This document shows positions 10,229 through 54,826 of a stretch of DNA of 64,000 nt, one piece after another. The translations under genes and the position numbers were made by a program. This DNA comes from Candidatus Marinacidobacterium sp. (GTDB taxonomy: Bacteria; Acidobacteriota; Vicinamibacteria; Marinacidobacterales; Marinacidobacteraceae): contig OZ251549.1 of assembly GCA_965243415.1 (NCBI GenBank), positions 3,899,802 to 3,963,801 on the forward strand, in the 5' to 3' direction. Position 1 is the first letter of the stretch. Each line of letters starts with the position of its first letter. The notes beneath the pieces were generated by a model. That model did not search any database and was not told where the DNA came from. It saw only the letters and a program-made list of their open reading frames with translations.

Positions 10229-10254
10229 CAACGGGTCCACCACCGATGTGCGCA

Positions 10255-13399: not shown

Positions 13400-13506
13400 C
13401 GCCCCGGTTCCACGCCCGATCTCGCAAACCGACGGCGCCCGAGCCATCGCCTCCGACCGGAATCCTCCGCCCCGCCGCCCCCACCCCGAACACCCACCGA
13501 GAATCC

Positions 13507-16581: not shown

Positions 16582-17841
16582 TCAGTCCGCGGCTCCCGCC
16601 CCGGCGGCGTCGGCGGGATCTACCCGGCGCAGCCGCAGCCGATGCACCCGCCGCCCGTCGGCCTCCAGCACCTCGATCCGCACCCCCTCGCTCTCCAGCG
16701 ACTCCCCCGGTTCCGGGATCCGACCCAGCGCCGCCAGCACGAAGCCCGAGACGGTATCGATCGCCGCCCCGTGGAGCGCCTCCGGCAACCGGACCCCGGT
16801 GCGCCGCGACACCTCGTCCAGTTCGGCGGCGCCGCGCACCAGGAAGACCCCCTCCGACTCCTCCTCGACTTCGGCCCCGCCGCCGTCGCCGTCCTCGCGC
16901 ACCTCGCCCACGATCTCCTCGGAGATGTCGCGCAGGGTCACGATCCCGGAGACGCTGCCGCGCTCGTCCACGACCACCGCGAAGGTCTGCTGGTCGCGTT
17001 TGAACTCCTTGAGCAACTCGTCCACGCGCTTGGTCTCCGGCACCACCGGCGCCTCCCGGACGAGCGCCGCCAGGTCGCCGCCGTTCCGCCGCGCCGCGAT
17101 CAGGTCCACCGCGTCCACCAGGCCGAGCACGCCGCCTTCCCCCCGCTCGCCGAAGACCGGCAGCCGGTGGTGGCGGCTCTCGGCCACCCGTTGCTCCACT
17201 TCCTCGACGCTGGCGCCGCTCTCGACGGAGACCACCGCCGTCCGGGGCGTCATCACCTCCCGCACCAGCATCTCGTCCAGTTCCAGCACTCCCCGCACCA
17301 TCGCGGCCTCCTCTTCTTCCAGGATGCCTTCCTCCTCGCCGGTCTCCAGGAAGGCTTCCACCTCTTCCCCGGTCGCTTCCTCCCCGGCCTCTTCGGAGAT
17401 CGGGAAGGAGCGGCGCAGCGCCCGCCGCAGCGGCTCCGCCAGCGGCCGCAGCAACCGCTCCCAGCGGCGGAACAGCGGGAGCAGTCGGCGCAGCACCGAC
17501 TCCGGGTCGCGCAGCAGCACCGCCGCCGGAACGACCTCCCGCAGGAGCAGGTAGCCCGGCGCCGCCACCAGCAGCACCCAGGCGGCGGGTTCCGGCCCCG
17601 CCCCCGCCTCCCGCGCCGCCAGTCCGGCGAACCCGGCGGACAGCAGCAGCCCGAAGCGCGTCGGGATGAGCACCGCCAGCGGGTCCGCCAGCCGCTCCCG
17701 GAGAGCCCGGGTCTCCTCCGGTTCCCCGGCGAGCGCGCGCACCGCGATCTCGCTCGACGAGAAGAAGGCGATCTCGAACAGGGCGAGCAGCACCACCGCG
17801 GCCCCGAACAGGACGATCAGCCCCACCCACAGCACCGTCAC
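16582..17841 (-). CDS. DUF21-CBS-CorC_HlyC family membrane protein (CorC/TlyC-like)
   Basis: GTG at 17841 overlaps the upstream stop (GTGA). N-terminal TM region (VLWVGLIVLFGAAVVLLALFEIAFFSSSEIA), a CBS pair (VREVMTPRTAVVSV..., TFAVVVDERGSVSGIVTLRDI), and a C-terminal CorC_HlyC-like domain. Confidence 0.9.
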   Translation of the reverse strand: MTVLWVGLIVLFGAAVVLLALFEIAFFSSSEIAVRALAGEPEETRALRERLADPLAVLIPTRFGLLLSAGFAGLAAREAGAGPEPAAWVLLVAAPGYLLLREVVPAAVLLRDPESVLRRLLPLFRRWERLLRPLAEPLRRALRRSFPISEEAGEEATGEEVEAFLETGEEEGILEEEEAAMVRGVLELDEMLVREVMTPRTAVVSVESGASVEEVEQRVAESRHHRLPVFGERGEGGVLGLVDAVDLIAARRNGGDLAALVREAPVVPETKRVDELLKEFKRDQQTFAVVVDERGSVSGIVTLRDISEEIVGEVREDGDGGGAEVEEESEGVFLVRGAAELDEVSRRTGVRLPEALHGAAIDTVSGFVLAALGRIPEPGESLESEGVRIEVLEADGRRVHRLRLRRVDPADAAGAGAAD

Positions 17842-18086
17842 GACGCCCCCGCCTCCCGCGCCGCCAGTTCGTCGAACCCCGCCGACAGGAACGGCCCGAA
17901 TCGAGTGGAAGGCGGCATCGCCGGCGGGTCCGCCAGCCGCTTCCGCAACACCCGGGGCCCCCCCGTCCGCCCGGCCAGCGCCTGCGCCGCGATCCCGCTC
18001 GAAGCGGAGGACGCGACCTCGAACAGCGCCGACAGCGCCGCCGCCGCCCGGAACCGGTCGATCCGCGCCACCCGGAGCACGATCAC
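17838..18086 (-). pseudogene. Diverged duplicate of the 5' (first TM hairpin) module of the DUF21 gene, still an intact 82-codon ORF
   Basis: About 245 bp, homologous to 17593-17841. Translation: VIVLRVARIDRFRAAAALSALFEVASSASSGIAAQALAG...FLSAGFDELAAREAGAS. GTGA overlaps at both ends (18083-18086 and 17838-17841). Confidence 0.45.
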
Positions 18087-18337
18087 GACGCCCCCGCCTC
18101 CCGCGCCGAGAGTTCGGCGAGCCCCGCCGACAGCAGCAGCCCGAGCCCGTGGGAATCCGCCTCGCCGGCACGCCCGCCGCCCGCTCCCCGCAGCGTCCGG
18201 GTCTCCCCCGCCCGCCCGGCCAGCGCCTGAGCCACGATCCCGCTCGAAGCGGACAACGCGACCTCCACCAACGCCGGCAGCGCCGGCAGCGCCACCGCCC
18301 CGAACGGAGCGATCCGCAGGGCCCGAAGCCCCGTCAC
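18083..18337 (-). pseudogene. Second diverged duplicate of the DUF21 5' module (84-codon ORF)
   Basis: Track ORF 18083..18337 (..ALPALVEVALSASSGIVAQALAG...LLLSAGLAELSAREAGAS). Its GTG overlaps the ybeY stop (GTGA at 18334-18337). Confidence 0.45.
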
Positions 18338-30165: not shown

Positions 30166-30765
30166 CTATTCGTTCTGGTAGGCGCCGGCGTAGGTCCGTT
30201 CCGCCGGTTCCGCCAGTCGGAAGAACACCAACTGGACGATCCGGGCGCCCTCGGTCAGTTCGATCCCGTCCGGGTGGCTGACGACGAGGAGCGACCCGCT
30301 GCGCCCCGAGTAGCCGGAATCCCACAGCGCCGTCCCGATATGGGCGCCGCAGCGCAGCAGCGACGAGCGCGTCCGCCCCAGCGCGAACACCTCCGCCGGA
30401 ATGTTCACCGTCTCGTGGTAGCGGACCCAGTAACTCCCGGCCGCCAGCCGCCAGACCCCGTCGGCGTCCGGGGGGATCGGCGCCGCCGCCGGGATCCGCC
30501 GCGTCCGGTTGTCGAAGTCCACCCGCCCCGGCCCCGACCCGAGCTTGCTCACCTCGGCCAGCGTCAGGTCCACCCCGTTCATCTGGATCTGCATTTCCGG
30601 ATCCCGCAGCCCTTCCAGCAACGGCGGATCGTCGGCCAGCCGCCGCCGCAGCGCCGCCCCGGCGATCAGTTCCATCGGCACTCCCGCCCGCAGCCGCCCG
30701 TCATCGGTGCGGCGATGGTACGCGAGCCACGCGGCGATGGCCCGCGCCCCCGACGGCGCCGCCAT
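30166..30765 (-). CDS. dCTP deaminase / dUTPase-family (DCD-DUT fold) protein, second family member in the window
   Basis: GVDLTLAEV...GRTRSSLLRCGAHIGTALWDSGYSGRSGSLLVV...GARIVQLVFF. The real start is probably ATG 30675 (MELIAG...). Confidence 0.75.
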   Translation of the reverse strand: MAAPSGARAIAAWLAYHRRTDDGRLRAGVPMELIAGAALRRRLADDPPLLEGLRDPEMQIQMNGVDLTLAEVSKLGSGPGRVDFDNRTRRIPAAAPIPPDADGVWRLAAGSYWVRYHETVNIPAEVFALGRTRSSLLRCGAHIGTALWDSGYSGRSGSLLVVSHPDGIELTEGARIVQLVFFRLAEPAERTYAGAYQNE

Positions 30766-30839: not shown

Positions 30840-31100
30840 ATGGCCAACCTGAGCATCCGACGACTCGACGACGATGTCTATCGGCGGCTGAAGGTCCGGG
30901 CGCGGGTCGAATCCGCCTCGATGGAAGAAGTGGCGCGTCGCATCCTGCGGGAGGCCCTCACCTCGAAGAAGCCGCTCGGCACCGCCATCCAGGAAGCCGT
31001 CGGTCCGAAGGGCCTGGTCGTCGAGATCCCGTCCCGCAAGGCGCTCAGACCGCGCGAACCGATCGATTTCTCGGCCCCGGAGTACGGGCCGGACGAATGA
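30840..31100 (+). CDS. vapB: FitA/VapB-type antitoxin (RHH)
   Basis: MANLSIRRLDDDVYRRLKVRARVESASMEEVARRILREAL. Its stop overlaps the vapC ATG (ATGA, 31097-31100). Confidence 0.8.
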   Translation: MANLSIRRLDDDVYRRLKVRARVESASMEEVARRILREALTSKKPLGTAIQEAVGPKGLVVEIPSRKALRPREPIDFSAPEYGPDE

Positions 31101-31507
31101 TCCTGCTCGACACCGATGTCCTGTCCGCCATGATGCGGCCGGATCCCGATCCCGGGGTCCGCGCCTGGTTCAATCGCCAGCCGGAGGAGGGAGTGTTCCT
31201 GTCCTCCATCACCATCGAGGAGATCCTCTTCGGTATCCGACTGGTGCCCGCCGGCAGGAAGCGGAGAGACCTGGAGCAGTCCTACTCCAACATGCACAAG
31301 ATCTTTTCCGGGCGCATCCTGCCGTTCGACGAGACGGCAGCCGGCGAGACCGCGACGCTCCGGGCTCACCGCCGCGCGATCGGCCGGCCCATGGAGGTCC
31401 CCGACGCCCAGATCGCCGGCATCGCCAAGAGCCACGCGCTCTCGCTGGCGACCTTCAACACCAAGGACTTCCTGCACCTCGACCTGCATCTTCTGAAGCC
31501 GCGCTGA
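31097..31507 (+). CDS. vapC: PIN-domain toxin VapC/FitB
   Basis: MILLDTDVLSA..., with conserved acidic residues (D5, E42 region, D/Q near DAQIAGIA, TFNTKDF). Confidence 0.9.
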   Translation: MILLDTDVLSAMMRPDPDPGVRAWFNRQPEEGVFLSSITIEEILFGIRLVPAGRKRRDLEQSYSNMHKIFSGRILPFDETAAGETATLRAHRRAIGRPMEVPDAQIAGIAKSHALSLATFNTKDFLHLDLHLLKPR

Positions 31508-31615: not shown

Positions 31616-32767
31616 GTGACCGATTCTCATGTTCCGCGGGCGCTCCTCGACCGCCTGACCCGGGCGGTGGCCCCCGGCAAGGTCGTCATTCTGTACGGCG
31701 CCAGGCAGGTCGGCAAGACCACCCTGCTCCGCCGTTATGTGCGGGAACACGCCCCCGAAGCGCTCTTCGTCTCCGGCGAGGACCCCCCGGTCCGGGAGCA
31801 GTTGGAGGGCCAGTCCGTCGCCCGGCTCGCCGCCTTCGTCGGCGGGCGCCGCACCCTGATCGTGGACGAGGCGCAGCACCTCCGGGAAGTCGGGTCGATC
31901 CTGAAACTCCTCGTCGACCACCTCGAAGGCCTCCGGGTCATCGCCGCCGGCTCCTCTTCGTTCGACCTCGCCGCCGCCACCGGCGAACCGCTCACCGGCC
32001 GGAAGAAGACCCTGCTCCTGCTCCCCCTCGCCCAACTCGAACTCGGCGCACTCGAAGGGCCCCACGAAACGAGCGCCCGTCTGCCGACCCGGTTGGTGTA
32101 CGGCTCCTACCCGGAAGTCGCGCTCCTGGATTCCGACGAGGAGCGCGCTCTCCACCTGCGCGAACTCGTGTCCTCCTACCTGTTCCGGGAGGTCCTGCAG
32201 GTCGAGGGCGTCCGCCATTCCAGCCGCCTCCTGCGACTCGTCCAACTCGTCGCCCACCAGATCGGCGCCGAGGTCTCCCTGAACGAACTCGGAACCCAAC
32301 TGGGCCTGAGCAAGAACACCGTCGACCGTTACCTCGACCTGCTCGAGAAGTGCTTCGTCCTCTACAGCCGTGGCGGCTTCAGCCGGAACCGTCGCAAGGA
32401 GATCAGCAGTCGCCGCCGCTACTACTTCCATGACAACGGCATCCGGAACGCGGTGATCGCCAACTTCAACCCCGTCTCCCTCCGCGACGACCTCGGCGCT
32501 CTCTGGGAGAACTACATCCTCACCGAGCGGATGAAGCGCAACCTCTACACCGGCCATCTCGCAGACAGTTACTTCTGGCGCACCTACGACCGCCAGGAAG
32601 TGGACCTCATCGAAGAATGGAACGGCGCCCTCCACGCCACCGAGATCGAGTGGTCCCCCCGCCGCGTCAAGGCCCCCGCCGGCTTCCGCCGCGCCTACCC
32701 CGACGCCACCTTCCGCGTCGTCCACCGGAACGACTACCTGGACTTCATCACTCCCCGGTCCTCGTGA
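31616..32767 (+). CDS. AAA+ ATPase with C-terminal DUF4143 domain
   Basis: Walker A GARQVGKTTLL, Walker B LIVDEAQ, and the later typical YFHDNGIRNA and EVDLI motifs of the AAA_14/DUF4143 family. Confidence 0.9.
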   Translation: MTDSHVPRALLDRLTRAVAPGKVVILYGARQVGKTTLLRRYVREHAPEALFVSGEDPPVREQLEGQSVARLAAFVGGRRTLIVDEAQHLREVGSILKLLVDHLEGLRVIAAGSSSFDLAAATGEPLTGRKKTLLLLPLAQLELGALEGPHETSARLPTRLVYGSYPEVALLDSDEERALHLRELVSSYLFREVLQVEGVRHSSRLLRLVQLVAHQIGAEVSLNELGTQLGLSKNTVDRYLDLLEKCFVLYSRGGFSRNRRKEISSRRRYYFHDNGIRNAVIANFNPVSLRDDLGALWENYILTERMKRNLYTGHLADSYFWRTYDRQEVDLIEEWNGALHATEIEWSPRRVKAPAGFRRAYPDATFRVVHRNDYLDFITPRSS

Positions 32768-32862: not shown

Positions 32863-33318
32863 CTACCGCCCGCAGCCGCGGCCCACTCGGCCGATCGCCG
32901 TGGCGGAGCCGTCGAGCGGGAAGGTGTAGGTCATCGTGCTCTCCATGCCGAGGATCGTCTCCTCAACTTCCACTCGGAGTTGTGTCCCGTTGATCGCCTG
33001 GAGGATCGGCGCGGCGCCGGCGAAGTACAGCATCCCGTAATCCGAGACGCGGAGCGGCATGGCCGTCGTCCGTCGTCCATTGACAACTGCCGTCGTGCTC
33101 TCGAAGTTGGCCGCGTACGACACCAGCGCGAGGAGGTCCCCGTCCGGGTTCAGTCGGCCGCCGCCTCCGGGTTCACACATGTATAGGAGGAAAGTCCGGT
33201 CGTTCTCGGCGGCCTTCGGACTCTCGGCGTCGCCGTCGTCGTTGACGAACCAACGCGTCTGGGCGCTCCCGGCGTGGGTGCCGGCCAAGAACAGACCCGC
33301 CAGCAGGATTCGGTTCAT
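32863..33318 (-). CDS. Secreted hypothetical protein (151 aa)
   Basis: In-frame ATG 33318. Signal peptide MNRILLAGLFLAGTHAGSAQT. No family recognised. Confidence 0.6.
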   Translation of the reverse strand: MNRILLAGLFLAGTHAGSAQTRWFVNDDGDAESPKAAENDRTFLLYMCEPGGGGRLNPDGDLLALVSYAANFESTTAVVNGRRTTAMPLRVSDYGMLYFAGAAPILQAINGTQLRVEVEETILGMESTMTYTFPLDGSATAIGRVGRGCGR

Positions 33319-33341
33319 GGCGGTACTGTGTCGTCTCCCGG

Positions 33342-34169
33342 CTAAGCCGGAGTCGCGGCGCCAGCATAGCACTCCCGCAGCCGATTCAACGAATCGAGAA
33401 GTTCCGGCGGCCCGAACCCCCGCTTCGCCCGGTTGTACCGGGACGGATGCCGTTTCAGAAGGAACAGCACCCGCTTGCCCTCCACCGACCCGGTGCACAA
33501 CTCCGGGTGTTGGCCACCCCAGGCGTGGATGGTCTCGAGAGCGAAGAGCCTTCGGAGCCCCTCACGCTGGAACCCGTCTCCCTGCGAGATCACGATGTCC
33601 GGCGTCAGCGTCTGGATGACTCGCCCCGCGTTCTTCATGCAGTTTCTCTTCATCGTCAGTGTCGATTTCGTAGCCATGCTGTGCTTGCCCGACTTCGAGT
33701 CCGTACCGACGGGACCGCACAGGACAGCGTTCACCAGAGCGAACTGGTGGGCGAGAGCCTCATCGGTGACTCCCTCGTCCAGCAGGTGCTTCAGTTCGAA
33801 GTACACGCCGCTCATGTGGGGGTTCCCGTCAGGATTCGCATTTCCCCGGAAATCCTCCTTACTCTGGCTCAGTTGGAACGGCCGGAAGAAGTCGCGCCCC
33901 TCATGGTGTGGCCGGTCCTTGGATACGAAGAGCACCCGCGCCCTCTGTCCGCCCACGATCGCCTCGCCGTAGTGGGCGCCGACGTACGCCCAGTCGCCTC
34001 TCCTGCCCACCCCCGGCGACAGGCCACCCCTCTTGCTCCGATTGCAGAACTCGTGGTCGCAGCAGGCGAACCCGGTCGTCGGGGCGACCTTCAACTGAAC
34101 CTCCATCAGGGCCTTGATCGCCCGCCGGTCAGGGGTCATCAGCCTGTCGATGGCTTCGATTCCCGCCAT
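33342..34169 (-). CDS. Uracil-DNA-glycosylase-superfamily-like protein (unknown subfamily)
   Basis: In-frame ATG 34169. The pattern resembles UDG-fold motifs: VLFVSKDRPHHEGRDFFRPF (motif-A position), FALVNAVLCGP, PDIVISQGD, VLFLLKRHPS (motif-B HPS). An alternative TTG start at 34301 would place the poly-G tract inside the ORF. Confidence 0.5.
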   Translation of the reverse strand: MAGIEAIDRLMTPDRRAIKALMEVQLKVAPTTGFACCDHEFCNRSKRGGLSPGVGRRGDWAYVGAHYGEAIVGGQRARVLFVSKDRPHHEGRDFFRPFQLSQSKEDFRGNANPDGNPHMSGVYFELKHLLDEGVTDEALAHQFALVNAVLCGPVGTDSKSGKHSMATKSTLTMKRNCMKNAGRVIQTLTPDIVISQGDGFQREGLRRLFALETIHAWGGQHPELCTGSVEGKRVLFLLKRHPSRYNRAKRGFGPPELLDSLNRLRECYAGAATPA

Positions 34170-34271
34170 GTCGTGTCCTCCCGCCCGTTCGGGCCGAACG
34201 GCGTTCGAGTCGGCGATCTCCGACCCGGAACGCAGCATCCGGCGGCCTTCGCCGCCGGCTCCGCCCTTATA

Positions 34272-34292
34272 CCCCCCCCCCCCCCCCCCCCC
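34272..34292. repeat. Homopolymer C21 (G21 on the gene strand)
   Basis: Counted directly from 'a' followed by 9+10+2 c. It lies between the herA stop (34450) and the UDG-like start (34169). Confidence 0.95.
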
Positions 34293-34449
34293 GCATGTCA
34301 AGTGCCAAATTCGGACGGGTCCGCCCCCCGTGCCGACCCGTTCCCCACTCCACCCTCGAGTCAGCCTCGCCCAGTCGGCCCCGGGCCCAGCCCTCGCCTT
34401 ACCAGCCGTAGCAGCCCGGCCCGCGCTCTCCCATCGTCCGTCTCCCCGT

Positions 34450-36243
34450 CTACTCGTCCCCCGGGGAGTCCTGCCTCCGCCCCTCCCCCTCGTTGAGACC
34501 GTTCTCGCGCAGGAAGTCGTCCACGCTGTTGAAGGCGTTGAAGAACAACGGGCTGCCCGCCGACGACAGCGGGCTCACCGGCCCCGTCGTCATGAACGAG
34601 TACTGCCGATGTTCCGTATCGAACGACGAATGCGGATCCCGGAAGGACTGGTACAGATCCAGAGCCGTCCCCTTCGACCCCACGAGTCGGCGCAGCGCGT
34701 CGTACTCGTACCCAAGCCCCAGGCCGAACCCGACGAACAGAATCCGCAGTTGCTGCACGATCTCGGAATCCAAACTGGCCAGTGTTTGACTGATGAACAT
34801 CCAACCGAGCCCGTACTTTCGCGTCGTCCGCGCAGCGTCCTTCAGGACCGCCTTGACGCTGCGGCCTGCCTCACCGCCGGCGGACGTCTCGCGCGGCGCC
34901 AACCGGTGAGCCTCATCAATGACCACAAGCGCGTTGAGGCTCTTCCCTTCCTGATAGCTGCGTTCCGCAGCCTCGTTCAGCCCGTCCAGTAGCCTCTTGA
35001 TCACGAGCGACTGGATCTGATCGTTCCACGACATCCCGCCAGCCTGCCTCTTGGACAAATCCACGACGACGACCGGCCGCTTTCGCCCGTCCACGGCCAA
35101 GAGACCACGGAGAACCGATCCGATCTGTTGGGCCCCGCTCCTGTCTTCCCGAAACAAGTTCCCGACGGATTTCCAGATCCGATAGAGTTGATCCGTGTCC
35201 GCTTCCTCTACTGCCGCGTTGAACCGGGCTCTCGGCCCCGGAGAACGATAGAACTTGCTCTGAAACCGATCTTCCCCCAAGAGTTGCCAGGCGGTGTCGA
35301 ACGCCTTCCGAGAGTACAGATCGCGGAGCTTGACCTTCTTCCTCAGGCCCTCCACCAAGACACTGCACGCCGTGACAAGATTTTCACCGGGAGGAATGGT
35401 CAACTCTCGAAAGAACACGGACTCGGCGAGAATCTTCTCGAACAACTCCCACCGATCGAGTACGAGTTGCTGAACGCCGATCACTTGGACTTTCCTACCC
35501 AGTCGGCCAAGCACATCACCGACCGGGATTCGGAACCCATCGTCCTCGCCCGCTTCCCTCCTCATATCCTGCGCGAACTCGCCCTGCGGGTCGAGGACCA
35601 GAAGCGCCATCTCCGGATGCCGTGCGTACGCCAACAACATCATCTTCGCCAGGACGGACTTGCCGGCCCCCGTCTTCCCGAACAGGCCGAGATGGTACGC
35701 CTCTCCCGCGCCGTTCACGCCACGATCGAAGTGCTTGAACCAGAGCGGCATCTTGGGTTCCGACCCATACACCTGCCCCAGATAGAACAACTGCGGCCGG
35801 TGTCGAGCCAAGATCCCTTCCAGCACTTCGTCGTTCACGATGTAGACCGATGTCCCGGTGGACGGAACCGTCCCCAGAATGCTCGGCTCGTAACCGCCAC
35901 CCGCGCCCTCCGCGAACACGGCGCTGATCCCCATCCGACCCAGGTGGGTGTCCTGTCGCGCGCTGACCGCGTCCACCCGTCCGTGACGCCGGACGAGGCT
36001 CCGCATCGTCGGGTCCTCGTGCCAGATGTTGCGGAGTTGGATCTCGGTTATCTGGCCGAGGGCGTAGTGTTCCCGGCCGTCCTGCGGGTAGTGGAAGAGC
36101 GCGAGTTCTCCGACCAGTTTGCGCGACGCCGCAGTCCCGAGGACATCGATGACGATCTCGGTCGTGCTGGAGGGGGAGCCGATCACTCCGAGGCGCTCCA
36201 TCTCCTCGACGATCTTGCTCAGCGGCTTCTCTCGGTCAGCCAT
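34450..36243 (-). CDS. herA: HerA-like hexameric ATPase/translocase (DUF87 family)
   Basis: 597 aa. HAS-barrel-like N-terminus (GVIGSPSSTTEIVIDVLG...), Walker A GLFGKTGAGKS, Walker B ALVVIDEAHRL, C-terminal FISQ. GGGAGA SD upstream. Confidence 0.88.
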   Translation of the reverse strand: MADREKPLSKIVEEMERLGVIGSPSSTTEIVIDVLGTAASRKLVGELALFHYPQDGREHYALGQITEIQLRNIWHEDPTMRSLVRRHGRVDAVSARQDTHLGRMGISAVFAEGAGGGYEPSILGTVPSTGTSVYIVNDEVLEGILARHRPQLFYLGQVYGSEPKMPLWFKHFDRGVNGAGEAYHLGLFGKTGAGKSVLAKMMLLAYARHPEMALLVLDPQGEFAQDMRREAGEDDGFRIPVGDVLGRLGRKVQVIGVQQLVLDRWELFEKILAESVFFRELTIPPGENLVTACSVLVEGLRKKVKLRDLYSRKAFDTAWQLLGEDRFQSKFYRSPGPRARFNAAVEEADTDQLYRIWKSVGNLFREDRSGAQQIGSVLRGLLAVDGRKRPVVVVDLSKRQAGGMSWNDQIQSLVIKRLLDGLNEAAERSYQEGKSLNALVVIDEAHRLAPRETSAGGEAGRSVKAVLKDAARTTRKYGLGWMFISQTLASLDSEIVQQLRILFVGFGLGLGYEYDALRRLVGSKGTALDLYQSFRDPHSSFDTEHRQYSFMTTGPVSPLSSAGSPLFFNAFNSVDDFLRENGLNEGEGRRQDSPGDE

Positions 36244-36246
36244 CGT

Positions 36247-37419
36247 CTATCTCCCGGATTCGCTCCGATAGCCGTGCATCGCGAAGAAGACCTCGCCGAT
36301 GTCTCCGGCATAGTTCTCGGAGATCTGCTCTGTGGTTACCTGACGGAACGACGGAAGCGCGCGGGCTAGGGCCTTCACCGTTCGGTCCGCCAGGTAGATC
36401 GGGTACGGCTCCATCATCGACGGCGTCGCGGTCTGGTGCCTGATCCCTTGAACCACCGTAGCCAGCCGGTGGGGATTCGAGGCGATGCTGGCCGGCACTT
36501 CGATCCGCAGCGCCGGCAGCCAACTCTGCGGCTTGTAGTAGAGAACTCGAACACGATCGAGAGCCGCGGTGACTGCGGCGGTGAGCCCCGCCGCACGCTC
36601 CTGCAGAGAAGCCGGCAGCGTGTTCGTATTCAGGTGCCAGCCACCCGACGCTTCCCCGTCCGTGTCGAGCGGCAGCGGGCTCGTCAGTTCTCCCGGCTCC
36701 AGCAACATGGTCAGGAGGCCGCGGTCGTCATAGGGGTTCGACAAATTCAACTCTTTACATACTTCACGGCGTGTCGAGTACTTCGGGAGCGCCGCGAACT
36801 GCCGGTCGGTCCGCTCCGACTTCAGGATGAGCAGGTAGGCGTCGAGGTAGTCGAGACAATTCGACTCGAACTCCGTCGCGCACTTGAGGGTTCGGGAGCC
36901 GTCGATCTTGTTGAGGGCCTGGTTGAAGTAGATGATGGGCAGGGCCAGCGTTCCGTCCATCATCACCAGATCGTGAGGCGCCCCGGTGATCAACTGGAGC
37001 TCCGCGCCCAGCATCACCGCGCGCAGGACCGTGGCGGTGTCCGGGTCGTGGACTTCCGCCTTGATGAAGGTCCGATGACGCGGATGTTCCCAGTGCCTCT
37101 TCTCCGAAGGAGGCGTCAGCCCTTCCACCGCGACGGCGGCAGCGGCGGCGAGATCGGTCGTCAGCAGGCGTTCGATGCCGTAGGAACCGTCCGCGCCGCA
37201 GGTGGTGGGCACCGGCGCCTGCGCCATCGCCGCCTCGGTCTCCAGGAGGCCGGAACCCGCCAGAGCGCGCCGATGCGCGTCCCGTTCGGCCCGGACTTCC
37301 TCGAAAGCGGCCAGCAGTTCCCGGGAGACCTCGGTCGTCTGCTCCAGGACCTCTTCCACGAGGGCGGCCGGCAGGTCCGCGAACGGTGCTGCGGCCGAGG
37401 CCGCCGGGGCTCCGTTCAT
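36247..37419 (-). CDS. nurA: NurA-domain nuclease
   Basis: In-frame ATG 37419 (GGGAGG upstream). CGADGSYGIERL and VMMDGTLALPI match the NurA catalytic Asp motifs. Only 3 nt separate its stop from the herA ATG. Confidence 0.78.
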   Translation of the reverse strand: MNGAPAASAAAPFADLPAALVEEVLEQTTEVSRELLAAFEEVRAERDAHRRALAGSGLLETEAAMAQAPVPTTCGADGSYGIERLLTTDLAAAAAVAVEGLTPPSEKRHWEHPRHRTFIKAEVHDPDTATVLRAVMLGAELQLITGAPHDLVMMDGTLALPIIYFNQALNKIDGSRTLKCATEFESNCLDYLDAYLLILKSERTDRQFAALPKYSTRREVCKELNLSNPYDDRGLLTMLLEPGELTSPLPLDTDGEASGGWHLNTNTLPASLQERAAGLTAAVTAALDRVRVLYYKPQSWLPALRIEVPASIASNPHRLATVVQGIRHQTATPSMMEPYPIYLADRTVKALARALPSFRQVTTEQISENYAGDIGEVFFAMHGYRSESGR

Positions 37420-38672
37420 GCGGCCTCCCAGAGGCGGTAGTCGTCCCGGCGGAAGTGCAGGAAGCGCCGGTCCCGGGCGGCGCGGGGAAGCAGCCACCGC
37501 TCCCGGAACCACTCGAAGACCCGGTCCGGACTCCGCCGCTCGGGTCGCAACTCGGCGTCCTCTCCCCGCAGAAACGCCTGCGTGTTCCCGGCGAGCGGCG
37601 CGACGAAGATCTCCCTCCCGACCCCGTGCCGGGCCAGGCCGCGGGACAGCCCCAGCAGGGGCAGGGTCTTCCGTACCAACTCGCGCCGGTTCCGGAAGCC
37701 GCTCCCCCAGAGGTCGTGCTTGGCCGTGGCGTCGCAGTACTTGCCGGCGAAGGCCCGCAATTCGGCATAGACGCCGTTGGTGAACTGGAACTCTCCCGTG
37801 CCGCAGGTGAACCCCACGCTCCGGAACGCTCGATCCCCGCCGTACCGGAGCCGGTTGTAGAGCGAGGAACGCCCGAGCGCCGAAGTCGTGGTCAGCAGCG
37901 CCAGCCGCCCGTCGAGCGGTCTCGGGCTGATGGTCGCCTGGCGTCCCCCGTACTTCGCGGCGAACCGCTCGATGACCGGTTGGCTCGTGGCCAGGAGGGC
38001 GACCAACTTTCCGCAGAGCAGGTACGAATACGGCGGGATCGCTCCCAGGGCGAACAGGTCCATCACGCACTGGAGGCGCTGCCGGCGGGCCTCGTAGTCC
38101 CAGCCGATCCATCGGTCGCGCGGCTTCAACCCGAAGATCGGGTCGCCGAGCCCGAAGATCCCGATCAACTTCCCGTTCGAGTCGTCGTAGATGACGAAGC
38201 GCAGTCGCCGCCCGTACCCGGCGGAGACCGGGATGCTCCAATGGAGTCTCGCATACCGGAAGAGGAGTTCCTCTTCGGAACCGGCCTCGACCTCCACGAG
38301 GCGGGGCCGGATGCGCTCGGGAACGACTTCCTCCCCGTTCGCCACGAAGGACAGCAACCGGCGCTCGTGCCGTTCAAGCCCCGCGCGGCTCCGCGTCCGA
38401 TTGTGGTCCACCGCCACCTGGTGCAGGGCCCGGAGACCCTCCTTGTTCCGTGGGTCCGGGGGAACGAGCGCGCCGTCCCGGATCGTGAAACCCTGGGCCG
38501 CGAGCGAGACGAGGAGACGGTTGCCGAGAGTCTCGGCCTCCATCTGGCTCGGCGCCTCCGGCAACTCTGGAAGCCCGCCGACGAACGGCCCCGCGGAGTG
38601 TCCGCCGGACGCCGGCGCAACGCCGAGCGCCCCACGGGCCTCTACGGCGGCGTCCATCGGACCGGCGGTCAT
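37416..38672 (-). CDS. DUF4338-like (Druantia DruA-like) protein
   Basis: 418 aa. Core RLRFVIYDDSNGKLIGIFGLGDPIFGLKPRDRWIGWDYEARRQRLQCVMDLFALGAIPPYSYLLCGKLVALL fits the DUF4338 pattern as I recall it. Its stop overlaps the nurA ATG (ATGA, 37416-37419). Confidence 0.65.
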   Translation of the reverse strand: MTAGPMDAAVEARGALGVAPASGGHSAGPFVGGLPELPEAPSQMEAETLGNRLLVSLAAQGFTIRDGALVPPDPRNKEGLRALHQVAVDHNRTRSRAGLERHERRLLSFVANGEEVVPERIRPRLVEVEAGSEEELLFRYARLHWSIPVSAGYGRRLRFVIYDDSNGKLIGIFGLGDPIFGLKPRDRWIGWDYEARRQRLQCVMDLFALGAIPPYSYLLCGKLVALLATSQPVIERFAAKYGGRQATISPRPLDGRLALLTTTSALGRSSLYNRLRYGGDRAFRSVGFTCGTGEFQFTNGVYAELRAFAGKYCDATAKHDLWGSGFRNRRELVRKTLPLLGLSRGLARHGVGREIFVAPLAGNTQAFLRGEDAELRPERRSPDRVFEWFRERWLLPRAARDRRFLHFRRDDYRLWEAA

Positions 38673-38762
38673 GGCGTCAGGGCGGAGCGTCCGGAGATCG
38701 GAGCGCGGCCAGCCACGAAATCGAGGCCTGACCGGCCACGGAAGGGTAGAGCATCCTTCTGG

Positions 38763-39341
38763 TCACTCCCCGGGGTCGGGCTTCAGGATGGTGGGGAGGG
38801 TGATGCGTTCCTGGCCCTGGTACTTGCCGTGTTTGTCGCGGTAACTGGTTTCGCACTCTTCGTCGCTCTCGAAGAAGAGGACCTGGGCGATGCCCTCGCC
38901 GGCGTAGATGCGGCACGGCAACGGCGTCGTGTTCGAGATCTCCAGCGTGGCGTTCCCCTCCCACTCGGCGTCGAAGCCGGTCACATTGATGATGATGCCG
39001 CATCTGGCGTAGGTGGACTTGCCGATGCAGATGCCGTACACATTCCTCGGCATCCGGAAGTTCTCGATGGTGTTCGAGAGGGCGAAGGAGTTCGGCGGGA
39101 TCACGCAGACCTCGCCGCTGAAGTCCACGAAACTCTGCGGGTCGAAGTTCTTCGGGTCCACGATCGCCGCATTGACATTCGTGAAGATCTTGAAGTCGTT
39201 CGAGACCCGGATGTCGTAGCCGTAGGCGGAGAGGCCGTAGGAGATGACGCCCTCGCCGACCTGGTGGTCCACGAAGGGATGGATCAGCCGGTGCTCCTTC
39301 GCCATCCGGCGGATCCAGCGGTCCGACTTGATGCTCGCCAT
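38763..39341 (-). CDS. dcd: dCTP deaminase
   Basis: [14 protein letters not shown]...[13 protein letters not shown]...[29 protein letters not shown]. Canonical Dcd. Confidence 0.95.
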
Positions 39342-44953: not shown

Positions 44954-45610
44954 GCCTCCCCGAACGGTGAGCGCCCCGTCGCTCGCACGGGCGACGAGTC
45001 CATCGCTCCAGGCGTCCCGGACGGTCCCCGGAGCACCATGCCGCTGCTGTCGCCTGGCCGAGCGGGAAAACGGCAGGGCGATGCCGACCGGCGGTCGCCG
45101 TCCCCCGCGCCGGCTCCTCCGCCTCCCCGAACGGCGAGCGCCCCCGCACCTCCATCGCTGCCCCGGCGCAAGGGCGGCCAGCCCCTCACCCCGGACCCCG
45201 GGCGGCTCCCGGATCTCCGGGAAAACTCCCGTCGCCCGTCGCGACGGAAGACCGCGAAGCGACCCCGCCGCGTCGTCGCCGTCGCCCCGCGTCGCGCCGG
45301 CTCCTCCGCCTCCCCGAACGGCGAGCGCCCCCGCACCTCCATCGCTGCCCCGGCGCAAGGGCGGCCAGCCCCTCACCCCGGACCCCGGGCGGCTCCCGGA
45401 TCTCCGGGAAAACTCCCGTCGCCCGTCGCGACGGAAGACCGCGAAGCGACCCCGCCGCGTCGTCGCCGTCGCCCCGCGTCGCGCCGGCTCCTCCGCCTCC
45501 CCGAACGGCGAGCGCCCCCGCACTTCCATCGCTCCCCCGGCGTGAGGGCGGTCCGCTCCCGGCCCCGGATCGGGCGGCTCCCGGACCGCCGGGAGACTGT
45601 CGATCGGCAA
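44954..45610. repeat. Tandem ~187 bp repeat, about 3.5 copies (anchor gcctccccgaacgg at 44954, 45121, 45308, 45495)
   Basis: The two central copies (45121-45307 and 45308-45494) are near-identical by direct reading. The outer copies are diverged or truncated. The period is not a multiple of 3. Confidence 0.9.
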
Positions 45611-50300: not shown

Positions 50301-50879
50301 GCCCGGCCGGCGGCTGACCTCCGGGGCCGAGAGCATCCCCGCTCCCGGCCCCGGCCGTTCCCGACCCGGCGCCGGCGCGACCCGCCGGCGACTCCCGGCC
50401 GGGCCACTGTCGCCGGCGCCCTCGTCCCCCGGCGCCCCCGTCCCCCGCCGGAGAACCGAACCGGGAGACCGCACCGGCCCGCTGATCGGCTGATCGCGAG
50501 CCGCCGGACGGACGAAGACCGCGGACGGCCGGACACCCGGACCGGCGCCCGCTGACCGGAGTCGGCGACCCCGCGTCCCGACCGGAAGCGCCGCCATCGC
50601 CGGAACCCGACCCCGGCCCTGCCGCGGCGACCCTGCCGCGGCAGAAAGCGGGACCGGGGGGAGCGGGACCCGGGCCGGGCGCGACCCGCCCCGGGACGGT
50701 CCGCCCCCGCGATTCGGAGGGACGATCCCCCCTGACCGGGAGGCGGCCCGCCAGACCGCCGCCGCCAACATCGCTGCCGCCATCGCCGCCGCCGTCGCCG
50801 CCGCCGGGACGAGCCCCGGAAGGGCGGGGGGCCCGACGGACCGTCGCCGCCGCCACCATCGCCGCCGCAGCGACGACCC

Positions 50880-51500
50880 CCCGGGAGCGCGGCCCGCCCC
50901 CGGGGCGCAGACCGCCGGGACGCCGAGCGCCGCGCGGATGCCGCCGGGAGGATCCCCCGGAGCGCGGCCCGCCCCGGGGCGCAGACCGCCGGGACGCCGA
51001 GCGCCGCGCGGACGCCGCCGGGACGATCCCCCGGGAGCGCCGCCCGCCCCGGGGCGCAGACCGCCGGGACGCCGAGCGCCGCGCGGGCGCCGCCGGGACG
51101 ATCCCCGGGAGTACGGCCCGCCCCGGAACGCAGGCCGCCGGGACGCCGAGCGCCGCGCGGACACCGCCGGGCCGAACCTCCGGGAGCGCCGCCCGCCCCG
51201 GGGCGCAGACCGCCGGGACGCCGAGCGCCGCGCGGACGCCGCCGGGACGATCCCCGGGAGCGCGGCCCGCCCCGGGGCGCAGACCGCCGGGACGCAGACC
51301 GCCGGGACGCCGAGCGCCGCCGGGACGAACCCCGGGAGCGCGGCCCGCCCCGGGGCGCAGACCGCCGGGACGCCGAGCGCCGCGCGGGCGCCGCCGGGCC
51401 GATCCCCGGGAGCGCGGCCCGCCCCGGGGCGCAGACCGCCGGGACGCCGAGCGCCGTGCGGGCGCCGCCGGGACGATCCCCCGGAGCGCGGCCCGCCCCG
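50880..51500. repeat. Tandem 74-75 bp repeat, about 8 copies
   Basis: The anchor gcgcagaccgccgggacgccgagcgccgcgcgg recurs at 50905, 50979, 51054 and onward. The period alternates between 74 and 75, so the reading frame is not preserved between units. Confidence 0.9.
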
Positions 51501-51879
51501 GAAGGGCCGCGCGCCGAGGCCCGGACGCCGGGCCCGCGACCGGTTCCCCCCGAAGCGCAACGGAGCGCCCCGCCCGTCCCCCCCGCCGGTCCTCCCGGAG
51601 GCGGCCCCCGGCCCTCCCCTCCCCAGTGTCGTCCTTCGGCCGGGGACGGCGCGTGACGGGGACGCCGGACGACGACGGGAGACCCCGGTCCGGCCCTCCC
51701 GGAGTCGTCCCTCCCGACCGAGCCCCGCCCGCCGTCCCGCTCCGCGTTCCGGGCCGGAGTTCCGCCGCTGTCGCCGGGCCCCCGCCCGGATTCCCGGCCC
51801 CGGAAGCCCCCCGCCCGCCGACCCGACCCCGACGAACTCCCGACGAACTCCCGACGAGCCCCGAACCCGACCCCCGCGC

Positions 51880-52580
51880 CGCCCAAGTCGCCACTCCCGG
51901 CGATCGGCTCGAACGGAGCAGCCCTCCCCCGCGCCGCCGGCCATCGCTCGAACGAAGCGGCCCTTCCCCGCGCCCCGGAGTCGTCGCCGGTGGCTGCCCG
52001 GAGTCGCCGGAGGGGATCTCGCCCCCCGCGGCAGGAGTCCTCGCCGGAAGCTGTCGAGCCGACGGAGCCGGTCCGAGCCGATGGAGGCGATTTCGCCCCG
52101 GCGCCCGGACTCGTCACCGGAGGCGAATCGCACGCCGAGGAAGCAGACTTCGCCCGAGGGGCCGGAGTCGTCACCGCCGGCCCCCGAGCGGAAGCCGGCC
52201 TCCCCTGCGCCGCCCAAGTCGCCGCCGCCGGCCACCGCTCGAACGAAGCGGCCCTCCCCCGTACCGCCGGAGTCGCCACCGGAGGCTGCCCGGAGTCGCC
52301 GGAAGGGATCTCGCCCCCGCGGCAGGAGTCCTCGCCGGAAGCCGTCGAGCCGACGGAGCCGGTCCGAGCCGATGGAGGCGATTTCGCCCCGGCGCCCGGA
52401 CTCGTCACCGGAGGCGAATCGCACGCCGAGGAAGCAGACTTCGCCCGAGGGACCGGAGTCGTCACCGCCGGCCCCCGAGCGGAAGCCGGCCTCCCCTGCG
52501 CCGCCCAAGTCGCCGCCGCCGGCCACCGCTCGAACGGAGCGGCCCTCCCCGACACCTCCGGAGTCCCCGCCACCGGCGGC
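51880..52580. repeat. Tandem ~292 bp repeat, about 2.4 copies
   Basis: The anchor ggctgcccggagtcgccgga occurs at 51992 and 52284, with long near-identical stretches after each. The period is not a multiple of 3. Confidence 0.85.
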
Positions 52581-52708
52581 GGGAGTCCTCGGTGCCGCCT
52601 CCATCCGGTCGTCGCAAAGGCCCCGGCGCCGACCTCGGCCCGCGCCGGGGCGCCCCGCCCTTCGCTCCGTACCGCCGACCCCCGGCTACGGGAAGGAAAG
52701 CGGGTCTC

Positions 52709-53150
52709 CTACGGCTCCACCCCGAAGGCCCGGCAGATCGCGTCCAGTTTCTCGACGACTTCCGGGTGGATCTCCGTCGGCTCCATGAGCGCGGCGATCT
52801 CGTGGTACCGGGTGTACGAGAGATCGGGCAGCCCGGCAGCAGTCAGCAGCGGCGGCAGCAACCGGGTTCGGGCCTTCACATCGCTCAACCACGGGTGGTC
52901 GCCAAGAGGATCCTCCGCAATGGCCAGCGGGTAGTCGCGCTTCCATGAGTCCCGCAACCTGGCGACCGCGGCCGCATCGCCGCCGGTCTCCCGCTCCACG
53001 AAGCGCGCCAGCGCCTCCGGGTGGAGCAGGTAACTCTCGATCTCGTACCGCCGCCAGCGCAGCCGCTGCAGCCCGGCACCGGTGATCTCCGTCTCCAGAA
53101 CCGCCGCCCGGGCGTCCCCGTCGCGCAGTTCCAGCCCGACGAAATGCCCC
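52709..53150 (-). pseudogene. Tandem duplicate of the 3' ~440 bp (C-terminal ~147 codons) of the downstream ATPase-TOPRIM gene
   Basis: Colinear with 53180-53621 (471 bp offset). It translates in frame to GHFVGLELRDGDARAAV..RRYEIESYLLHPEALARFVERETGGDAAAV...EVVEKLDAICRAFGVEP. It lacks the ATPase part and an obvious start for the full fragment. Confidence 0.8.
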
Positions 53151-53179
53151 CCCGGCGGCGAGGCTGGGGGGAGTGTGGC

Positions 53180-54826
53180 CTACGGCTCCACCCCGAAGGC
53201 CCGGCAGATCGCGTCCAGTTTCTCGACGACTTCCGGGTGGATCTCCGCGGGCTCCATGAGCGCGGCGATCTCGTGATACCGGGTGTACGAGAGGTCGGGC
53301 AACCCGGCGGCGGCCAGCAGCGGCGGCAGCAGTTCCGTGCGCGCCTTGGTATTCCTCAGGAAAGGGTGGTCCTCGAAAGGGTTCGCCGCCACCGCCGGCG
53401 GGTAGTCGTTCCGCCACGAGTCCCGCAACCCGGCGACCGCGGCCGCATCGCCGCCGGTCTCCCGTTCCACGAAGCGCGCCAGCGCCTCCGGGTGGAGCAG
53501 GTAACTCTCGATCTCGTACCGCCGCCAACGCAGCCGCTGCAGCCCGGCACCGGTGATCTCCGTCTCCGGAACCGCCGCCCGGGCGTCCCCGTCGCGCAGT
53601 TCCAGCCCGACGAAATGCCCTCCCGCGAGTCGCAGCGCTTCGAAGTGGTCCCGCGAACGAACCCCCGGCGTACCGCTCTCGGTCTCGAAGACCGCCGGCT
53701 TCCACATGAGTTCGGTGGCCAGCAGCCGTTCGGCGCGATGCTCCAGCCGCCGGGCCCAGGCGCCCAGGATCTCCCAGTCGGTGTAGTCCTCCACATAGAG
53801 GATTCCGCGGGCGCCGGCCATCTGCACGACCTCCGAGTTGGAAAGGACGCGCAGCGAGGTGAGCAGCCGACTCTTCTCCACATCGTCCGCCGCCATGCGC
53901 GGCCGGTCCAGCAGGATGCAGAGGTCGCGCGGCTCGACGGCATCCACGACCGCCTCCGAGTGCGTCGCGCAGATGAGTTGGCAGCGCTGCCGGGCCGCCA
54001 CCCGGCGCAACTCCCGCCAGATCGAGTTCTGCAGGATCAGGTGCAGATGCGCATCCGGTTCGTCCAGCAGCAGCACTGCCCCGGGCCGCACCTGCAGCAC
54101 CGCCAACAACATCAGGACCTGGTGGAACCCGCTTCCGGCACTGGCGACATCGAGCGGCGGCGCCGTCTCCGACTCCCGGTACTCCGCGACCACATGCGCC
54201 CCGCCGGCGAACGGTTCCAGCAGCCGGTAACCGAACAGGCGGTCCACGGATTCCACCAGCGCCTCCCAGGCCGGGGGGTTCCCGTGCGCTTCCACCAGCA
54301 GGTTGCGCAGGGTGTCCCCCGCCCGCCCGACATGGAGCAGTTGTTCGACCTTCGGCCAGTGGTACAGCGGCTCGTCTATGACCACCCCGTCCATCGGCGG
54401 AGCGAAGACCACCGGGAAATCCATCCGCTCCAGGACCTCGGGTTCCGCATCGGCGGCCGGCCGGATATACATCTGTTCGACGGTGTCCGCCCGGAACTCC
54501 ATCTTCACCGACCCGGCGTCATGGCGGACGCCGATTTCGAGGATGTCCCGATAGACGCGGTCCTTCCAGAGGTGGTCGAACGCCCGGAGCGGCACCACCG
54601 AGAACGATTGGCGGGAGATCGGGACATGGTCGTAGCCGTGCTTGCCGCGCTCCCGCGCCCCGACTTGGGCTCTCCAGTGCCGGAGAGCGAAGGCCCAAGC
54701 GGCGATGCCCTGCAGCACCGTGGTCTTGCCGGTGTTGTTGGGGCCGGCGACGACCAGGTGGCCCGGCAGCCGGAAGTCGAAGTCCCCGAACCGCTTGAAC
54801 TTCCGGACGGAGACTTCCCGGATCAT
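53180..54826 (-). CDS. ABC-type (AAA_15/21-like) ATPase fused to a TOPRIM/DUF4435-like domain (OLD-family or fused PARIS AriA-AriB-like)
   Basis: In-frame ATG 54826 (GGAGGG upstream). Walker A GPNNTGKTT, signature-like SAGSGFHQ, Walker B LLLDEPDAHLH, H-loop CATHS. C-terminal ILYVEDYTDWEIL, LELRDGD and RRYEIESYLL resemble TOPRIM/DUF4435 acidic motifs. Confidence 0.7.
   Translation of the reverse strand: MIREVSVRKFKRFGDFDFRLPGHLVVAGPNNTGKTTVLQGIAAWAFALRHWRAQVGARERGKHGYDHVPISRQSFSVVPLRAFDHLWKDRVYRDILEIGVRHDAGSVKMEFRADTVEQMYIRPAADAEPEVLERMDFPVVFAPPMDGVVIDEPLYHWPKVEQLLHVGRAGDTLRNLLVEAHGNPPAWEALVESVDRLFGYRLLEPFAGGAHVVAEYRESETAPPLDVASAGSGFHQVLMLLAVLQVRPGAVLLLDEPDAHLHLILQNSIWRELRRVAARQRCQLICATHSEAVVDAVEPRDLCILLDRPRMAADDVEKSRLLTSLRVLSNSEVVQMAGARGILYVEDYTDWEILGAWARRLEHRAERLLATELMWKPAVFETESGTPGVRSRDHFEALRLAGGHFVGLELRDGDARAAVPETEITGAGLQRLRWRRYEIESYLLHPEALARFVERETGGDAAAVAGLRDSWRNDYPPAVAANPFEDHPFLRNTKARTELLPPLLAAAGLPDLSYTRYHEIAALMEPAEIHPEVVEKLDAICRAFGVEP

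Follow-up and report, generated by a model that had tools for sequence, protein, structure and literature searches.

Which task could unite a DruA-family protein, a NurA-type nuclease and a HerA-type translocase in a single operon? This question is raised by a 64,000-nucleotide stretch of DNA from Candidatus Marinacidobacterium sp. (GenBank assembly GCA_965243415.1, contig OZ251549.1, positions 3,899,802 to 3,963,801 of the forward strand), referred to in its entirety as the window, in which genes for these three proteins follow one another on the minus strand. A first-pass annotation, made from the sequence alone, had read them as a candidate defence system, together with a trailing gene of the uracil-DNA glycosylase (UDG) superfamily. 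Our results identify druA-nurA-herA as an obligate, translationally coupled three-gene unit, hereafter called the triad, and separate it from the UDG-like gene. As to its task, we favour a role in the degradation of foreign DNA over roles in repair or in the transfer of mobile elements.

The druA-nurA-herA unit

The four genes of the first-pass annotation are indeed co-oriented open reading frames (ORFs) on the minus strand (Table 1), and the three that make up the triad are intact. Their translational coupling, as described earlier, can be read directly from the sequence: the druA stop and nurA start codons overlap as ATGA (37416-37419), and the nurA stop codon TAG (36247-36249) is separated by the trinucleotide ACG from the herA start codon ATG (36241-36243), with a putative Shine-Dalgarno (SD) site for herA, GGGAGA, at 36250-36255 inside nurA.

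This arrangement is conserved far beyond the window. In a DruA-centred survey with one genome per species, which returned 80 loci, NurA was encoded directly downstream in 72 loci and HerA in 68; most of the HerA genes that were missed fall beyond contig ends, and both genes are absent from eight loci. A NurA-centred survey of metagenome contigs returned 80 further loci, with DruA directly upstream in 64 of the 65 that had room for it; on the other side, all 76 loci with room had HerA immediately after NurA. The order druA-nurA-herA recurs in about 140 independent loci, which is far from chance, so that the operon first proposed from one sequence proves to be a conserved unit in both surveys. 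Across about 135 loci, the median gap is -4 nt between the DruA and NurA genes, the ATGA overlap being the commonest arrangement, and +3 nt between the NurA and HerA genes, with 97-99% of the intergene gaps measuring 30 nt or less. Moreover, the pairwise-identity matrices of the three proteins are correlated (r=0.95 for NurA-HerA and r=0.75 for DruA-NurA). The NurA-HerA pair falls into two divergence classes, which differ in their identity to the window proteins (about 50-70% in one, about 26-42% in the other). The window DruA-like protein and NurA each have thousands of homologues, the closest of which are 60-73% identical and occur in very different bacteria; when 1.84 billion representatives are grouped at 50% identity, the NurA subfamily alone makes up about 500 clusters.

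The domain identities of the three proteins are clear. Profile searches gave matches above threshold to the families that had been named for them, DUF4338/DruA, NurA and DUF87/HerA, and every motif string quoted in the first pass was located, including the DruA block at residues 156-225. The window DruA matches Pfam PF14236 with E=1.4e-102 and the PADLOC DruA model PDLC00002 with E=9e-107. Compared with the canonical DruA of the locus on P. putida plasmid pKF715A (L093), it shows 38% identity across 83% of its length (E ~1e-66 to 1e-72), and the two proteins share the core motifs WS[IV]PVS.G.GRRLR, GDP, IGW, PPY..LL.GK and TTS..GRSS.YNRL. The DruAs of triad loci form a subfamily of their own, with a median identity of 0.50-0.57 internally versus 0.37-0.38 to canonical DruA, and one of them (P0097) bears the NCBI name 'Druantia anti-phage system protein DruA'. 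An AlphaFold model of the window protein has a GNAT-like topology, with an order of secondary-structure elements that fits this fold, and the acetyl-CoA pyrophosphate motif (Q/R-x-x-G-x-G/A) is partly kept as PPYSYLLCGK (residues 213-222). No solved structure could be linked to DruA by sequence. Nearly all top Foldseek matches of the model (pLDDT, the predicted score in the local distance difference test, 68.7; E>0.1 for each match) are GNAT or MYST acetyltransferases, in agreement with the published classification of DUF4338 as a GNAT domain of defence proteins (PMC10853773).

The window NurA matches PF09376 with 24.7 bits (cut-off 21) and contains the motifs CGADGS (residues 74-79) and MMDGTL (153-158), whose aspartates D77 (DGS) and D155 (DGT) are invariant among 21 homologues. 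Neither phmmer nor profile searches matched it to a solved NurA. The top seven Foldseek matches of its AlphaFold model in the PDB are all archaeal NurA proteins (best E=4e-3, probability 0.96), the model being, like that of DruA, of middling confidence (pLDDT 68). For HerA, a DUF87 match of 43.8 bits (cut-off 23.2; E=4e-11) is accompanied by intact Walker A (GLFGKTGAGKS, residues 186-196, with K195) and Walker B motifs (VVIDEAHRL, residues 440-448, with D443/E444). Its matches to the PADLOC models HerA and mad8 are weak (E ~1e-13 or worse), as are those to the NCBIfam HerA models. Among solved chains, those nearest to it come from the HerA proteins of complexes for defence and repair (E 1e-6 to 7e-4), with the similarity confined to the region around Walker B, and weak matches were also obtained to TraC/VirB4/TrwB ATPases and to the PDB entry 'TdpA'. 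TdpAB is a defence pair of a HerA-like protein and a nuclease, a description that our literature search did not confirm.

Some loci carry additional genes or altered copies. A gene for a protein of about 917 residues that combines a UvrD helicase with a PD-(D/E)XK/Cas4-like nuclease adjoins the triad in about 12 loci (~10%), usually directly upstream of druA; its copies are 52-77% identical to one another, remnants of it are seen in about five loci (Table 1), and it is a possible optional fourth component. In two Planctomycetota loci (L052 11116-12153 and L060 10713-11765), a protein of about 350 residues, hydrophobic at its C-terminus and without a match in Pfam or PADLOC, is encoded between druA and nurA. 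It also occurs in L076, L017 and L105 and adjoins the kinase-ORC type of DruA system described below. The herA gene of L003 is broken by an insertion of about 1.8 kb (about 12300-14140), and P0284 appears to join a NurA C-terminus to a HerA N-terminus, as a real fusion, a frameshift or an assembly artefact.

Spread of the triad and the case for defence

Comparison with relatives reveals how the triad came to lie in the window. Close relatives (NurA 84-97% identical) share the gene order icd-mdh-sucC-sucD-ndk-dcd-DruA-NurA-HerA, with the triad at the dcd site in L081-L085 and the window, and L085 continues past it as the window does, with the UDG-like gene, DUF4143, FitA, DCD2 and, further on, aspS. 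The same synteny is found in the more distant loci L088/L089 and L091/L092, whose UDG-like proteins are 65% and 45% identical to that of the window, with the UDG-like gene directly after dcd and no triad. Within this lineage, the triad was inserted after dcd and ahead of a UDG-like gene that was already there: L088 and L091 have that gene directly after dcd without the triad, so that it predates the arrival of the triad. The breakpoints cannot be placed exactly, since the intergenic DNA has diverged. The triad is hence no syntenic core feature of all relatives, and its accessory status, as previously proposed, is borne out by this insertion polymorphism and by the lower GC content at third codon positions (GC3) in herA and nurA. 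GC3 amounts to 0.80 in herA, 0.82 in nurA, 0.83 in the UDG-like gene and 0.89 in druA, compared to 0.90-0.94 in dcd, ndk, sucCD and aspS, so that the A/T-richer third positions noted earlier for the whole block hold for herA, nurA and the UDG-like gene but not for druA.

On a larger scale, record titles place the triad carriers in about 16 phyla, with identities of 50-73%. They include Pseudomonadota, Binatia, Latescibacterota, Acidobacteriota, Gemmatimonadota, Rhodothermales, Actinomycetota, Chloroflexota, Verrucomicrobiota, Desulfobacterota, Nitrospirota, Nitrospinota, Bacillota, Planctomycetota, Armatimonadota and Acetothermia-type bacteria, and among the cultured strains are Methylococcus capsulatus Texas, Tepidimonas alkaliphilus, Limisphaera sp. 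and Thermoleophilum album. Between phyla, nucleotide homology is limited to the triad coding span, with no conserved ends, and clustering of all flanking ORFs, called heuristically as the longest non-overlapping ORFs with a GC3 filter, found nothing shared beyond the three genes. The commonest matches among immediate neighbours are restriction-modification proteins (DNA methylases, type III Res, type IIG and type II restriction enzymes), other defence proteins (HmaA/B/C, DrmA/DrmD, BrxH, OLD-type ATPases, NsnB, HEC-03B and PDC-M55A), phage-type integrases and Schlafen/AlbA_2 proteins. One IMG/VR contig (L096) has the triad after a type III Mod-Res pair, another (L098) has it flanked by a large serine recombinase on one side and a helicase plus a Prim-Pol/DUF3987 gene on the other, and the neighbourhood in the window itself includes a PDC-S01 candidate. 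Thus, the triad spreads horizontally, landing in variable contexts that are often of the defence or mobile genetic element type.

With moderate confidence, we read the triad as a DruA-licensed HerA-NurA module that degrades DNA in defence against phages or plasmids. The HerA-NurA complex of T. kodakarensis degrades both strands from DNA ends and has been proposed to play an antiviral role (PMC12977600, 2026), and the solved complex is a HerA6-NurA2 assembly in which double-stranded DNA is threaded through the ring into the nuclease (PMC12977600). We infer for the triad a defence function, a 6:2 complex, end-dependent degradation and a regulatory or catalytic role of DruA, with HerA and NurA probably forming a hexamer-dimer motor-nuclease. 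In this scheme, drawn by analogy with the solved complexes, the HerA hexamer would take up double-stranded DNA at a free end and feed it into the NurA dimer, which would degrade it processively at the expense of ATP. Its targets would be molecules with free ends, such as phage genomes during injection or replication, linear plasmids and intermediates of transfer, and the circular host chromosome would be spared, as it offers no entry point. DruA, with its GNAT-like core and invariant basic and aromatic motifs, may be the licensing or specificity subunit that licenses or restrains the motor-nuclease, and translational coupling would ensure its production in fixed proportion. Possible ways for it to switch the motor-nuclease on or off are the detection of infection or foreign DNA and the acetylation of a protein or nucleic-acid target.

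Several observations weigh against a role in defence. Median pairwise identities of 0.52-0.64 across phyla are unusually high for defence genes and fit repair or housekeeping genes under purifying selection as well, and a repair role of NurA-HerA is documented in Deinococcus and archaea. The census of neighbours, which covers 111 immediate-neighbour proteins, has no genomic background control, and some of these neighbours are plainly housekeeping proteins, such as ribonucleotide reductase and thioesterases. In the sub-lineage of the window, the triad is stably syntenic beside genes of the tricarboxylic acid cycle and nucleotide metabolism. No copy was found in cultured phages, and sequenced plasmids yielded just two distant partial NurA matches (about 25-27.5% identity, the best over 62% of NurA) and no close copy. 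Finally, the GNAT assignment of DruA combines the literature with non-significant Foldseek matches of a model with a pLDDT of 68.7, and searches of the DruA core against Pfam returned the DruA family alone, with no GNAT family matching even at E<=10.

Some of these points lead to the best of the alternatives, an accessory module for double-strand-break repair or recombination in which HerA-NurA would resect ends under the regulation of the DruA-like GNAT protein and which would spread through a benefit for survival of DNA damage. We regard this alternative as unlikely. The identities of NurA and HerA speak for it, as do the strong conservation across phyla, the stable synteny just mentioned, the UvrD-nuclease beside the triad in ~10% of the loci, and repair or housekeeping neighbours such as ribonucleotide reductase and a UvrA paralogue in the DruA-only locus L013. 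However, the DruA family is otherwise known solely from defence loci, namely Druantia I and the kinase-ORC/CDC6 plus CARF6-type loci considered below, the distribution of the triad is patchy, with presence and absence among close relatives, and its flanks often contain restriction-modification, Hma, DISARM-like, OLD or integrase genes. In addition, no linkage to Mre11-Rad50 was noticed, Mre11 and Rad50/SbcCD not being among the 25 commonest families of the 111 neighbours in a census that included no search aimed at them, and recent biochemistry questions a role in resection even in archaea (PMC12977600).

Less probable still is a selfish or mobile-element function in exclusion, addiction or DNA processing, with HerA acting as an FtsK/VirB4-like pump and NurA as an RNase-H-fold nuclease in the service of element transfer or competition. 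The evident transfer between phyla, the occurrence of the triad on IMG/VR contigs, the serine recombinase and Prim-Pol/DUF3987 context of L098, tyrosine integrases in several loci and the weak similarity of HerA to conjugation-type ATPases of the TraC/VirB4/TrwB kind would all be compatible with it. Yet most loci are chromosomal with flanks that are not of the mobile-element type, homology stops at the coding sequences, without terminal repeats or conserved non-coding ends, and no close copy was found in cultured phages or sequenced plasmids. A transposon or insertion sequence-like element was likewise considered and rejected, as there are no conserved ends, the window contains a single copy and no recombinase is consistently linked.

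The UDG-like gene and its G tract

A four-gene system, with the UDG-like protein reading or excising unusual bases for DruA-NurA-HerA, is highly improbable, for its co-orientation and adjacency in the window and L085 and its weak UDG-superfamily signal, HPS motif and four invariant cysteines stand against a gene that is present in none of 80 genome and none of 80 metagenome loci of other lineages (0 of 160), belongs to a nine-member family, lies directly after dcd without the triad in L088 and L091 and is preceded by a conserved promoter or leader and an SD site of its own. Being absent from triad loci elsewhere and older than the triad in this lineage, the UDG-like gene is not a component of the system, and this part of the first-pass proposal is abandoned.

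The UDG-like family comprises nine homologues in 5.8 billion proteins, and all seven with examined contigs come from this syntenic region. The window protein scores 21.8 bits against PF03167, below the cut-off of 24.3, and two homologues have a precomputed match to this family; there is no sequence or profile match in the PDB. An HPS motif at residues 241-243 corresponds to motif B, with H241 and P242 invariant, the motif-A position reads VSKDRP, which is non-canonical, and C36, C42, C151 and C177 are invariant. The protein looks like a divergent member of the UDG superfamily, with cysteines reminiscent of the Fe-S family-4 UDGs. Its position after dcd and ndk and near a second DCD-like gene suggests a link to dUTP or uracil handling. 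The two dCTP-deaminase-family genes lie 8 kb apart, and DCD2 is conserved in the syntenic block of the lineage with ndk, dcd and the UDG-like gene; these four genes may form a lineage-specific dUTP/uracil-handling cluster. The idea that dcd and DCD2 represent a target-site duplication bounding an island was discarded, as BLASTP shows no mutual similarity.

Downstream of the herA stop codon, at a distance of about 155 nt, lies a run of 21 G residues, the sole homopolymer of at least 10 nt in the window. The same layout, a conserved 16-mer followed by a G run and TATAAG, TAATGT or TAAAAT, precedes the UDG-like gene both with the triad (window, L085) and without it (L091 and L092), and the tract, previously taken for a spacer feature of the operon, belongs to the promoter or leader of the UDG-like gene. 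It is non-coding, as shown by the SD site GGGAGGA before the ATG at 34169 and by a hairpin in the leader (34239-34258, minus strand; CCGGCGGC-GAAG-GCCGCCGG) that is conserved, as is the sequence from there to the SD site. The hairpin is kept in L085, L086, L087 and L090, and L091 has a similar, shorter GC hairpin. At E<=1, Rfam gave no match in 33000-39000, including this leader.

The G run measures 13 nt in L091 and L092, two independent assemblies, 15 nt in L085, 21 nt in the window and 27 nt in L090, whose contig starts 10 nt before the tract and does not show the 16-mer; at the contig ends of other relatives it measures 19 or at least 15 nt, all these values being subject to the proneness of assemblies to homopolymer errors. 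Several short-read contigs of relatives break exactly at the tract. With a tract whose length differs at the same site among relatives, the arrangement is like that of classic phase-variable promoters. If the elements are taken as the -35 and -10 of a sigma-70 promoter, the spacer equals the length of the run plus 3 nt, giving 16 nt in L091 and 18 nt in L085, within the functional range, and 24 nt in the window, probably an OFF state. A sigma-70 consensus scan of 33200-38900 detected no promoter. Alternatively, the 16-mer fits the sigma-54 -24/-12 consensus with one mismatch, as the sole such match in the window, where about two are expected by chance, and the G tract would then lie at the transcription start.

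Table 1. Positions of the triad, its neighbours and associated elements in the window, with selected elements of other loci (L numbers).
Feature	Position	Strand	Remark
druA-like gene	37416..38672	-	DruA family, DUF4338; 418 aa; first triad gene
nurA nuclease gene	36247..37419	-	390 aa; second triad gene
herA HerA/FtsK-type translocase gene	34450..36243	-	597 aa; third triad gene
Inserted segment (approximate)	34309..38762	-	Triad plus short flanks, between dcd and UDG-like promoter; from comparison with relatives' contigs
UDG-superfamily-like gene	33342..34169	-	275 aa; lineage-specific, outside triad
UDG-like promoter/leader element	34266..34308	-	16-mer + G21 + TATAAG; outside triad
16-mer	34293-34308	-	TTGGCACTTGACATGC; conserved in relatives
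G21 tract	34272-34292	-	
TATAAG hexamer	34266-34271	-	After G21
dcd	38763-39341	-	dCTP-deaminase family
DCD2	30166-30765	-	Second dCTP-deaminase-family gene
FitA-like gene	30840-31100	+	Toxin-antitoxin pair with PIN gene
PIN (VapC) toxin gene	31097-31507	+	Toxin-antitoxin pair with FitA-like gene
DUF4143/AAA_14 ATPase	31616-32767	+	PADLOC candidate PDC-S01, E=1e-138
Promoter/leader element with G tract in L085	9866-9902		
Promoter/leader element with G tract in L091	7126-7160		
Promoter/leader element with G tract in L090	1-43		
UvrD-nuclease gene in L001	7224-9977		
UvrD-nuclease gene in other loci			L017, L019, L023, L024, L100, L105, L117, L134, L142, L148, L151, L152
UvrD-nuclease remnants (~5 loci)			L002, L003, L005, L014, L026

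Beyond the UDG-like gene, the toxin-antitoxin module noted earlier is represented by the FitA/VapC pair at 30840-31507. The adjacent DUF4143 ATPase gene and the FitA-like gene are kept in relatives with or without the triad, the PIN gene in some only. The window is rich in tandem arrays (10251-11390, 17599-18285, 45106-45594, 50863-51501, 51932-52565 and 52708-53625). A 19-bp unit, CGCAGGGTGGTCGATCCGC, is repeated about 60 times and overlaps ORFs for repetitive peptides; further arrays have periods of 74-471 bp and lie in very GC-rich DNA, with up to 84% GC near 51-52 kb. Two paralogous ORFs on the plus strand (63069-63617 and 63645-64001) have near-identical starts, MMSITEYVGIARK.LQSAPVNVVRL..., and the second runs out of the window end.

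Relation to known systems

Type I Druantia (Doron et al. 2018) consists of DruA, DruB, DruC, DruD and DruE. Its resemblance to the triad lies in DruA, a full-length homologue that comes first in the operon in both. By contrast, DruB, DruC, DruD and DruE, the last a YprA-like, DUF1998-containing helicase of about 1800-2000 residues, are absent from the triad, which has NurA and HerA in their stead. The pKF715A locus encodes a DruA of 409 residues, DruB, DruC, DruD and a DruE of 1841 residues, and neither the window nor any of the triad loci contains a homologue of the latter four (by tblastn for DruB-D); DruE homologues were found just in L073, a DruA locus without the triad, and in L094. The PADLOC 'Druantia type IV', considered as a match, is unrelated and consists of DruE, DruF and DruL. 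As triad loci lack DruB-E, the Druantia name that NCBI gives to P0097 implies that defence censuses may miscount orphan 'DruA' matches.

The HerA-NurA pairs of archaea and Deinococcus-Thermus (PDB 9x1m, 3tal; PMC12977600, PMC9960219) share with the triad the adjacent nurA and herA genes, the NurA DGS/DGT motifs and the intact HerA Walker motifs. They differ in their very low sequence similarity to the triad proteins, and the triad is set apart by its obligate third gene, its patchy horizontal spread and its defence-type flanks. A HerA-type translocase combined with an effector in defence islands is likewise found in SIR2-HerA, DUF4297-HerA and 'HerA/FtsK capture' systems (PMC10853773, PMC12839542), whereas the effector of the triad is NurA rather than SIR2, a DUF4297/Cap4-like protein, a restriction endonuclease or PglZ. 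No SIR2 or DUF4297 (Cap4-like) effector was detected beside the window HerA, Pfam and PADLOC scans giving DruA and NurA alone. A precedent for a GNAT-type partner is BRC, in which HerA occurs together with a GNAT protein (PMC10853773, PMC12839542), but the other components of BRC and Dnd are absent from the triad. Among published concepts, 'HerA/FtsK capture' and BRC come nearest to it.

DruA itself occurs in further contexts. In five loci (L034 6369-10098, L040, L045 11040-14868, L076 8276-11945 and L079), it is accompanied by a protein-kinase/ORC-CDC6-like ATPase of 830-900 residues and a PADLOC CARF6-type protein of about 400 residues; these loci share the DruA subfamily of the triad, their DruAs having triad DruAs as nearest neighbours (0.54-0.65), but contain neither NurA nor HerA, and they appear to represent another uncharacterised DruA-based system. 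Another DruA locus without NurA-HerA (L013) lies beside a DUF6339 and C5-methylase cluster. As the DruAs of such loci nest among triad DruAs (nearest neighbours 0.49-0.67, with canonical DruA as an outgroup at ~0.37) and have other partners, DruA emerges as a portable module that is combined with different ATPase or nuclease effectors. It is tempting to extend this picture, at what we judge to be even chances, to a DruA that serves as a portable sensor or licensing enzyme for DruBCDE, HerA-NurA or a kinase-ORC/CDC6 ATPase, to a HerA-NurA that acts as an antiviral DNA shredder rather than in repair, and to the triad as a widespread immune system. The triad joins in one small cassette the role of DruA in Druantia, a system known since 2018, and the disputed role of HerA-NurA. 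If the extended picture were true, it would offer the first bacterial genetic handle on both questions, and its carriage by cultured strains makes both directly testable.

The first-pass annotation had known of no named system with this composition, and our comparison agrees: none of the PADLOC v2 models matches the window NurA, DruB-E are missing, and our full-text literature search turned up no publication linking DUF4338/DruA to NurA or HerA. Sharing its first gene with Druantia, its nuclease and motor with the archaeal and Deinococcus-Thermus complexes and its translocase-effector design with HerA-based defence systems, the triad is apparently an undescribed gene set built from known kinds of parts.

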